From sequence record OL631478.1: a stretch of DNA of 64,000 nt; one strand, written 5' to 3'. The first letter of the stretch is position 1. Each line of letters starts with the position of its first letter. The notes below the pieces were generated by a model that had not been told where the DNA came from, ran no database searches, and saw only the letters and a program-made list of their open reading frames with translations. The DNA is from Escherichia phage ECML-1. The translations under genes and the position numbers were made by a program. Below are positions 2,470 through 4,150 of the stretch, one piece after another.

Positions 2470-2850
2470 TTTTTATAAGGCTACTGCCATCCTTCCATAC
2501 CTTACCTAACCAAACCGAACCTCACACAACCAGACCGAGCCGCACCCCGCCTTATTAAAAGACCCTCTTAAAGACCTTTTAAAAAGGTAAGTCTCATTTT
2601 AATGTAGCTGAGACTAACTACCCGCACCGAACCTCACCTGACCTGACCGCGCCATACCTAACCGTGCCTTACCACACCTCACTTAAAAACCCTTTTAAAA
2701 GACTCTTAAGTGATGTAATCGAATTTTTATGTAGCTCCGATTAACTACCCATACCTCACTTTACCTAACCTGACCTTACAAGACCGTACCTGACCCGACC
2801 CCACCTCGCAGTACCTTGTTAAAAGACCCTCTTAAAGACCTTTTAAAAAG
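2470..2850. repeat. three tandem ~120 bp intergenic repeat units with G-depleted C/A-rich tracts
   Basis: Units each hold a 60-70 nt tract almost free of G on the + strand (e.g. tacccgcaccgaacctcacctgacctgacc) followed by cttaaaagaccctcttaaagaccttttaaaaag (2563-2588 and 2818-2850) or a close variant. Confidence 0.6.
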
Positions 2851-2866
2851 GAGCCTCCGAAGAGGC
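2841..2866 (-). terminator. intrinsic terminator (minus strand)
   Basis: Reverse complement reads agcctc-ttcg-gaggct followed by ccttttt; lies just downstream of the gene ending at 2879. Confidence 0.6.
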
Positions 2867-2878
2867 TACCTAGTCAAC

Positions 2879-3319
2879 TTAGAAAGGTTTTCTACGTTGC
2901 TTGTTAATGTTAGCTTTCATAGCAGCTAAATGGTTTTGCTGTTCAATCAGTCGTGAACGTTCTTGATGACTAAGTGCCATAGTGTTCACATTCTCAATCG
3001 CTTGAGTGGCTTGCTTTAAAGCACGACCAATCTTACCAGACATTTTACGTTTTGCAATAGTTGCTTGATGTTTAGGTTCAACCACACGATAACCAACACC
3101 CATTGAAGCAACCAGATAAATCTTCTCTTCTTTAAGAAGCTTCTCAATAAACTTCTCAAGTCGGTTTAGACGTGTAAGCGCATAAGCCTTCATTTCATCT
3201 TCGTACTTAACAATGTCACCTTGATAAGTTGGCTTCACAATACCTAAGAAGGTGTCCATCTCAGAATGTGATACAGTGTCACCGTAACTAAACTTTGCTG
3301 CTAATGCTTTTGTATTCAT
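2879..3319 (-). CDS. hypothetical protein
   Basis: 146 aa ORF. Confidence 0.5.
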   Translation of the reverse strand: MNTKALAAKFSYGDTVSHSEMDTFLGIVKPTYQGDIVKYEDEMKAYALTRLNRLEKFIEKLLKEEKIYLVASMGVGYRVVEPKHQATIAKRKMSGKIGRALKQATQAIENVNTMALSHQERSRLIEQQNHLAAMKANINKQRRKPF

Positions 3320-3321
3320 AA

Positions 3322-3924
3322 TTAAACGTTACCTTCTGAAATAACTTCTACAGAAAAACGACCAAAGCGTGGACGCCAATCACCTACACCACAAAGGTTG
3401 CCAGCATTTTCCAGAACCATCAGAAGTTCCTCTCTGGTGATTTGCTCTTCATCAAACATCAAACCAAATTCTACAGACCAGTCACGGAAGATTGGACGGT
3501 AGCTCATAACTCGTGCTGTACCAATCTTAACAGACTTAGCATAGATAAAGTCTGGGTTCTTAGCAAGTTCTTGTGGGTTTGCTGGACAGTTCTTGATAGT
3601 CATTGGGAAGACTACATCTGTCAGCATAATGGCTCGGTCAATTACCTTACCAAGTTTGTTGAGTTTTGCACCAGACTTGATACAAGCCTCAATCATCTCA
3701 CCGTTCATAACAAAACCTAGCTGCTCATCGTAGTAACAAGAGGTTACCAGTTGGCTTTCTGCTAAGAGCGCATAGTCTTCGTCAGTCTTTTTACGTTTAC
3801 TGGACAGAGACTTGTGATATTTTGTCAGAGGATTTAATGGGTCTGACAGCGTATCAGCGTGGCTCAGGAAAGGACGAGTACCAGTGATTTTGATATTTAA
3901 CAGTTTCATAACATTTAGCTCCAC
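3322..3924 (-). CDS. hypothetical protein
   Basis: 200 aa ORF; 3 nt from the downstream gene. Confidence 0.55.
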
Positions 3925-3989
3925 ACTTTAGTTGATTGTTAAGTTGTTTGTAAAGAACCCTCAACAGAAGACTCTTTAGAAACTTGGTA

Positions 3990-4150
3990 GATTTTTAACG
4001 TGGCTACTACCATCCACCCATACCTCACCTAACAACACCTAACAACACAAAACTACACCCCACACCACCGCACCACACCAAACATCACTTAAAAACCCTC
4101 TTAGAAGACCCTTAAGTGATGCTGGTGAGTACCCGTTGGTTTATGCTGCT
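3990..4150. repeat. fourth copy of the G-depleted C/A-rich repeat unit
   Basis: ggctactaccatccacccatacctcacctaacaacacctaacaacac...cttaaaaaccctcttagaagaccc; same architecture as the 2470-2850 units, followed by the 8-bp-stem hairpin ggtgagta/tactcacc. Confidence 0.55.

Follow-up and report, generated by a model that had tools for sequence, protein, structure and literature searches.

Introduction

The closest described system is VIPR (Viral Interference Programmable Repeat), reported in two bioRxiv preprints of April–June 2026, which are not yet peer reviewed (10.64898/2026.04.26.720920 and 10.64898/2026.04.26.720927, hereafter 720920 and 720927). According to these preprints, the Vipr protein is a minimal RAMP made of an RRM core, a G-loop and a thumb, and the vrRNA carries 9–16 YNNGG repeats followed by a 3' tail, which in the SUSP1 clade is a pseudoknot (720920, 720927). 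One protomer is bound per repeat with GGY sequestered, and NN pairs with double-stranded DNA following a one-nucleotide-skip rule, with formation of an R-loop triplex and silencing of transcription. In SUSP1, one vrRNA is found upstream and three downstream of vipr–vap1; vrRNAs of ~100 nt are expressed and co-purify with Vipr, the targets are silenced, and a satellite in E. coli is the target of most SUSP1-clade guides (720920, 720927).

The backbone of Class 1 CRISPR-Cas effectors (Cas7/Csm3/Cmr4 assembled on crRNA) shares with VIPR the RAMP fold, the glycine-rich loop, the thumb, the stoichiometry of one protomer per fixed number of guide nucleotides and the periodic base flipping. In contrast, the VIPR locus is devoid of a repeat-spacer array, of cas1/cas2 and of Cas5, Cas6 and large subunit, and its period is 5 nt (three hidden, two read) rather than the 6 nt of CRISPR (five read). 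Moreover, VIPR reads a gapped code, is encoded by a phage and has guides that are fixed in the genome.

In Bacillus, the trp leader RNA recognised by TRAP carries 11 G/UAG triplets separated by 2–3 nt spacers and preceded by a 5' stem-loop. Both systems present a short conserved triplet every 5 nt on single-stranded RNA, one subunit of a homo-oligomer per copy, and a 5' stem-loop. However, TRAP is a ring and Vipr an open helix, the TRAP spacers are uninformative whereas those considered here are functional, and the output of TRAP is the attenuation of its own transcript, while VIPR targets DNA in trans.

The window analysed in this work, a stretch of 64,000 nt in its whole length, belongs to a Felix O1-like myovirus (Felixounavirus) and contains four repeat units, named A to D, around two genes. 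Its likeness to the type II VIPR system of SUSP1 (PDB 36pp; 720920, 720927) covers two proteins, Vipr (97.9% identity to Vipr of phiSUSP1, L022) and the probable vap1 product (99.3%), the placement of one unit before and three after their genes, the YNNGG pentamers, the types of pseudoknot tail and the family of satellite targets. The two differ in that SUSP1 is a Suspvirus, and in that the locus presented here is known from sequence alone. In addition, the NN guide strings differ from those of SUSP1, and so do, therefore, the predicted target sites. Because Vipr and vap1 identity, contact residues, repeat statistics, pseudoknot and one-plus-three layout all agree, we consider it highly probable that the four units encode the vrRNAs of a SUSP1-clade VIPR system of type II. 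VIPR is already known, and the locus is an instance of this described system. Anatomy, homology, fold, protein–array co-occurrence, the in silico skip rule and the predicted targets come from the present analysis; RNA expression, RNP formation, filament structure and silencing are taken from the preprints.

Results

Genomic setting of the repeat units

A 2-kb query around the units matched 256 phage records, nearly all Felixounavirus, with 80–99% identity (97.1% to the best one), and Salmonella is the host of the closest phage relative of the window. All the genes in the stretch around the units point leftward. On one side of the units is the DNA ligase gene (4187..5323) and, on the other, the genes that lead towards DHFR and thymidylate synthase; the units themselves flank a cassette of two genes, vipr and the probable vap1, with unit D upstream and units A–C downstream (Table 1).

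The sigma-70-type promoter found upstream of unit D is the probable start of a transcript comprising vrRNA D, vipr and vap1. As for the promoter-like site downstream of unit A, we infer that it serves the next gene (1986..2369). On the leftward strand, promoter-like hexamers are embedded in hairpins both at 2414–2461, where the -35 element is located in the loop of a terminator-like stem, and at 4122–4179, where the -10 element falls within the GGTGAGTA/TACTCACC stem that follows the ligase gene, suggesting that termination and initiation signals overlap. An Rfam scan of the window returned only tRNAs at gathering score, and region 2350–4250 gave no credible match with E values up to 5. A cluster of 24 tRNA genes maps to positions 57810–63553 on the plus strand.

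Table 1. Features of the locus, in the leftward direction of transcription (window positions; H2, 5' hairpin; NN, variable dinucleotides of consecutive pentamers)
Feature	Position	Strand	Details
Sigma-70-type promoter, just after the DNA ligase gene	4152..4179	-	TTGACA-16-TATACT; 11/12 consensus positions; consensus match only
H2 of unit D	4083..4121	-	stem CATCACTTAAG.../...TTAAGTGATG; 19-bp stem on minus-strand RNA including G.U pairs
vrRNA D repeat tract	4018..4082	-	13 pentamers; NN = TT GT GC GG GG GT TT GT TA GT TA GA AT
vrRNA D tail, H-type pseudoknot	3985..4017	-	S1 GTGG/CCAC, S2 TGGTAG/CTACCA
vipr, 195-aa RAMP (Cas7-like) protein, predicted repeat binder	3322..3909	-	profile match to PDB 36pp_D
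vap1 (probable vipr-accessory protein), 146 aa	2879..3319	-	99.3% identity to the phiSUSP1 (L022) ORF downstream of vipr
Intrinsic-terminator-like hairpin, after vap1	2852..2867	-	UUCG loop and T run
H2 of unit C	2814..2851	-	stem CCTTTTTAAAAGG.../...CTTTTAACAAGG
vrRNA C repeat tract	2749..2813	-	13 pentamers; NN = AC GA GG CG CA AC CT AA CA TA AA GA AT
vrRNA C tail pseudoknot	2716..2748	-	S1 GTAG/CTAC, S2 TAATCGG/TTCGATTA
H2 of unit B	2677..2715	-	
vrRNA B repeat tract	2622..2676	-	11 pentamers; NN = GT AA AC TA AT GC CA CA GA TC GC
vrRNA B tail pseudoknot	2590..2621	-	S1 GTAG/CTAC, S2 AGTCTCA/TGAGACT
H2 of unit A	2550..2587	-	
vrRNA A repeat tract	2495..2549	-	11 pentamers; NN = GG GC TC CT TG GA TC TT TA AA AT
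vrRNA A tail pseudoknot	2461..2494	-	S1 AAGG/CCTT, S2 TGGCAG/CTGCCA
AT-rich terminator-like hairpin (inverted repeat) with promoter-like site, after unit A	2414..2461	-	TTGACA-17-TATTTT

The units carry a hypervariable pentamer code

An earlier note on this DNA, made from the letters alone, had placed here three tandem units and a fourth one apart. Repeat-finding tools and direct reading agree with this arrangement, giving A at 2461–2587, B at 2590–2715, C at 2716–2851 (in tandem) and D at 3985–4121; an nhmmer search with a profile of the four units found no additional full unit within the 64 kb. On the minus strand, each unit consists of a hairpin of 38–39 nt, 11–13 Y-N-N-G-G pentamers in a strict 5-nt register, and a 3' pseudoknot, in this order. 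The repeat tract is a 5-nt periodic array, reading (N-A-C-C-N)n on the plus strand and (Y-N-N-G-G)n on the minus strand. The description of the tracts as nearly devoid of G on the plus strand fits unit D (1/65) and only in part the other three (C 7/65, B 8/55, A 6/55), the window as a whole having 20% G. The proposed boundary motif AAAGACCCTCTTAAAGACC has exactly two occurrences, one in unit A and one in unit C, and is present in variant form in units B and D; chance alone would give ~0.01 matches, even if 3 mismatches are allowed.

To these data we added a clade sample of 77 distinct unit copies gathered from related IMG/VR contigs, repeat statistics being computed on 75 of them. Of the 75 clade units, which have 9–17 repeats, 73 have a tract length divisible by 5. 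In the same 75 units, the Y position is a pyrimidine in about 99% of cases (T 88%, C 10%), the first G is kept in 81% and the second in 97%, while the NN positions are hypervariable, with 1.9 bits of entropy each. The unit pattern, but not the NN positions, is conserved in ~230 Felixounavirus records and in the 77 distinct copies. The search of related genomes suggested by the earlier note thus shows a pattern kept across Felixounavirus, so that neither lack of conservation in related phages nor generic low complexity accounts for the units. The observation of the units is real and far from chance. The pentamer code, the 3' pseudoknot, the two-gene cassette with its partner protein and the guide-RNA function had all been missed by that first reading.

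A Cas7-like protein adjoins arrays of this kind in unrelated phages

We scanned IMG/VR for exact matches to (GGTNN)5GGT, and then clustered the ORFs found around degenerate arrays. Among the matches listed there were plain microsatellites but also, in many unrelated contigs, degenerate arrays like those of the window. A protein family of 177–233 aa adjoins the arrays in at least 24 unrelated viral contigs as well as in the window, where its member is the gene named vipr in Table 1. Array and family gene lie on the same strand in all the listed contigs but one (L063) and, among the matches listed, most arrays begin within ~100 nt of the stop codon of the family gene. The window protein aligned directly with 13 of the 24 listed homologs, at 21–43% identity.

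Searching with the family profile, we retrieved chain D of PDB 36pp, "SUSP1 Vipr protein", with an E value of 1e-79, as the one solved structure matched. All 13 published RNA- or DNA-contact residues are kept in the window protein (H17, K33, R39, E71, M72, K82, G87, K88, R138, C173, D177, W178 and R179). Its AF2 model has a pLDDT of 95, and the best-matching folds are Csm3/Cas7 subunits of type III and type VII CRISPR complexes. The window Vipr has more than 500 homologs, which are uncharacterised; no Pfam domain was detected in it, and Pfam and PHROGs gave no function for either vipr or vap1. The gene following vipr found no match in Pfam or PDB, and is probably vap1, judging from the locus description of the preprints, in which the SUSP1 operon consists of vipr and vap1. 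The locus contains neither an identical-repeat/unique-spacer array nor cas genes, its only genes being vipr and vap1. In conclusion, the locus is a relative of CRISPR RAMPs and not a CRISPR system.

Two further kinds of array were observed in IMG/VR. In several unrelated viral contigs, up to 12 tandem (YNNGG)n arrays stand beside distant Vipr homologs (L062, L064, L072, L076, L085, L090, L100, L134, L142 and others), and each such group of contigs has its own linker (for example GGTAAGGAATGGTTTAATGAATTTAATT in L076 and AAGGCTAATGG in L064, or GGCAGGT as punctuation in L085/L090/L100). Other types of VIPR, with other array architectures, are the probable explanation. In a second set (L044, L045, L050, L061, L065, L067, L087–L089, L102, L122, L125 and L129), a GATAC...GTATC-type inverted repeat recurs, followed by CAGGTTAGGTTAGGTAAGGTTAGGTTAGGTAAGGATAG, and the spacers are almost invariant. 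The gene-context clustering did not include the latter contigs, given their low spacer diversity. The element may be something other than vrRNA.

Each unit ends in a pseudoknot and begins with a hairpin

The tail of the units forms an H-type pseudoknot, with 11 pairs in two interleaved helices. In related units, 92.5% of cells are paired, compared to at most 48% in slid controls, and both-sided (compensatory) changes were found in 9 of the 11 pairs; as these changes stem from about four tail types, they correspond to few independent events.

The small hairpins noticed at the units in the first reading are real. Specifically, a hairpin of 38–39 nt, which we call H2, precedes every repeat tract, with two stem variants and a conserved loop. 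Because the G.U pairs that lengthen its stem exist only on the minus strand, H2 is stable only on the sense RNA. The published VIPR model does not account for such an element, and the available parts of the two preprints contain no description of it (720920, 720927). H2 could be a vrRNA processing site (e.g. of the RNase III type) or a dedicated promoter, freeing vrRNAs from type II arrays.

Searching the window with an H2 profile, we found no convincing extra copies and two weak partial matches. One is at 55736–55767(+), CTTTTAAGAGGTCTTATAAGAGG, just upstream of the start of a protein gene, and the other at 59354–59384(+), CTTTAAGGGCTTTCTAAGAGAGTCTTTAAAG, upstream of a tRNA gene; their position before a gene and a tRNA is a hint that the motif might serve more generally in this phage, as a signal for regulation or processing. 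In two vrRNA units of other contigs (L017 4278–4426 and L032 12240–12388), an insertion of ~22 nt, AAATTATATTCGATAGAGTATCTCAT, interrupts the H2 loop while the stem is kept.

Many guides of the clade match an E. coli satellite under a one-nucleotide-skip rule

In 144 E. coli chromosomes, short stretches that carry no annotation match the window locus. They are vrRNA-like sequences inside a satellite of ~11.5 kb, which encodes tape-measure, baseplate and HNH proteins and a large serine recombinase. The satellite was found in 568 of 5,426 complete genomes, and its insertion sites include a DUF72 gene and the interval between yciI and tonB, besides others. In the L159 copy of the satellite (other copies are in L160–L170), the vrRNA gene (20001–20095) is solitary; its tail is of the phage type, a terminator comes after it, and vipr is not annotated nearby. 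The satellite presumably borrows the Vipr of its helper phage. When the satellite proteins were compared with the window by tblastn, no matches were found, and the reported structural-gene homology was not confirmed from this window.

We then compared the 75 guides with 12 satellite-carrying loci, all from E. coli, using a threshold of at least 80% NN match. With a skip of 1 nt, 48/75 guides reached the threshold, compared to 0/75 with no skip, 5/75 with 2 nt and 2/75 with 3 nt; permuted guides read with the 1-nt skip gave 2/75. All the 157 hits fall inside the satellite, which makes up 55% of the scanned DNA. Therefore, this analysis reproduces independently, for the clade, the published skip rule.

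As for the guides of the window, guide A matches at 19/22 NN, a value reached by 0/200 permutations. Its site (L164 7068–7099) covers the ribosome binding site and the start codon of a small promoter-proximal satellite gene (97 aa), which immediately follows a promoter of sequence TTGACA-N17-TAAGAT. Guide B matches, again at 19/22 NN and with 0/200 permutations, the large serine recombinase gene in frame (L169 13968–13999). The match of guide C is marginal (20/26 NN, 5/200 permutations) and falls, in frame, in the same large serine recombinase gene family (L160 29457–29494). For both B and C the skipped base coincides with the wobble position of the codons. The best satellite match of guide D, 18/26, was reached by 115/200 permutations, and its target was not found. 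Exact-pattern scans of viral contigs gave 0 matches for guide C and 0 for guide D; the same scan of genome contigs gave for guide D a single match, in a Poribacteria MAG, where we estimate that ~1 is expected by chance for a 20-base pattern. No guide matches the 64-kb window itself above shuffle level.

Discussion

Proposed mode of action

The data presented above, read together with the preprints, would depict the following scenario. Leftward transcription would yield from each unit a guide RNA of ~100 nt, with 11–13 YNNGG repeats and a 3' pseudoknot cap. Vipr, as a minimal Cas7-like RAMP, would polymerise along this RNA with one protomer per repeat, burying each GGY, so that the exposed NN dinucleotides could pair with double-stranded DNA reading NNxNNxNNx, according to the one-nucleotide-skip rule. 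The bound filament would then block transcription of the target, and guides A, B and probably C would be aimed at the ~11.5-kb satellite integrated in many E. coli genomes. In view of the near-identity to SUSP1, we infer that this particular locus is active in this phage.

The suggestion that the units may be protein-binding sites or RNA elements had, therefore, pointed in the right direction, although unspecifically: they are read here as RNA genes on the leftward strand, whose tract is, per the preprints, bound by Vipr. To call them G/U-rich tracts between genes undersells what is read here as an RNA-guided DNA-targeting array.

Alternative readings of the tracts

We judge it very improbable that the units are TRAP-like attenuation leaders, in which a ring protein would bind the GGU triplets and control a downstream terminator, thus regulating the phage's own genes; among the alternatives, this is nevertheless the one that survives best. 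A 5' stem-loop followed by 11–13 triplets with 2-nt spacers and by a terminator region resembles the trp leader of B. subtilis, and the positions of unit D, within the vipr leader, and of unit A, before a terminator-like hairpin, would also suit attenuation. However, the partner is a helical-filament RAMP and not a TRAP ring, the repeat count is not fixed (9–17), the NN strings find matches in foreign DNA, and antiterminator pairing is not evident.

Two other readings are, to the same degree, still less probable. According to the first, the C-rich, G-poor tracts would be Rho utilisation (rut) sites on rightward antisense transcripts, insulating the leftward early genes. Such a composition is typical of Rho targets, and tracts of 55–65 nt with 47–48% C in A, B and D (43% in C) and 1.5–15% G, predicted to be unstructured between hairpins, would satisfy it. 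Yet a rut site has no need for a strict 5-nt register, for a conserved GGY with hypervariable NN, or for a pseudoknot; the G.U pairs of H2, like a change from G.U to G-C in the stem of the tail, are meaningful only on the minus strand; in unrelated phages, the arrays are accompanied by a RAMP protein; and no rightward promoter was found nearby.

The second reading looks at the opposite transcript, which, being G-rich, would form persistent R-loops priming replication, as at T4 ori(uvsY) or in ColE1, the pentamers being degenerated microsatellites. The absence from Felix O1 of the cassette and of all the units but one, which implies that the cassette is dispensable, speaks against such an origin, as do the matches of the NN information to a foreign element under the skip rule, which an origin does not predict, and the way in which copy number and position of the arrays track the vipr gene in unrelated phages. 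In favour of this reading are a G-rich non-template strand, a promoter directly upstream of unit D and the location of the units within a replication gene cluster, between ligase and DHFR/ThyA. Along with these three readings, G-quadruplexes, primase sites, Chi/BREX decoys and pause sites were dropped because they leave unexplained the conserved GGY with informative NN and the RAMP partner.

Possible turnover of the cassette in Felix O1

Returning to the vrRNA reading, in Felix O1 vipr and vap1 are absent between ligase and ORF87, and one orphan vrRNA-like unit (L003 3223–3349 = NC_005282 57722–57848) combines a type A tail with a type D H2; its best satellite match is 16/22. The Felix O1 genome paper contains no mention of the units, and a literature search for GGTNN-type strings was uninformative. 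A hybrid with the H2 of D and the tail of A is the expected remnant of a recombination event joining units D and A, and such recombination probably explains the loss of the cassette; to this extent, the recombination hotspots imagined in the earlier note find a counterpart. More generally, the vrRNA units could be recombination substrates by which vipr–vap1 is deleted or installed, leaving orphan hybrid guides. Taken jointly, H2 as a processing site or promoter and the units as substrates for cassette gain and loss form a tentative proposal, which we hold to be somewhat less probable than its contrary.

Significance

VIPR is a recently reported form of RNA-guided DNA recognition, in which a Cas7-like filament reads a gapped code of two nucleotides out of five; CRISPR effectors have been proposed to descend from it. 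The present case indicates that the reading of raw sequence alone can flag such a locus. Four published points were, moreover, recovered independently from sequence: the association of the protein with the arrays, the pseudoknot, the skip of one nucleotide and the satellite as target. In conclusion, this phage most likely uses VIPR against a satellite element in its E. coli hosts, and for this phage our data add a prediction of which satellite genes would be silenced.
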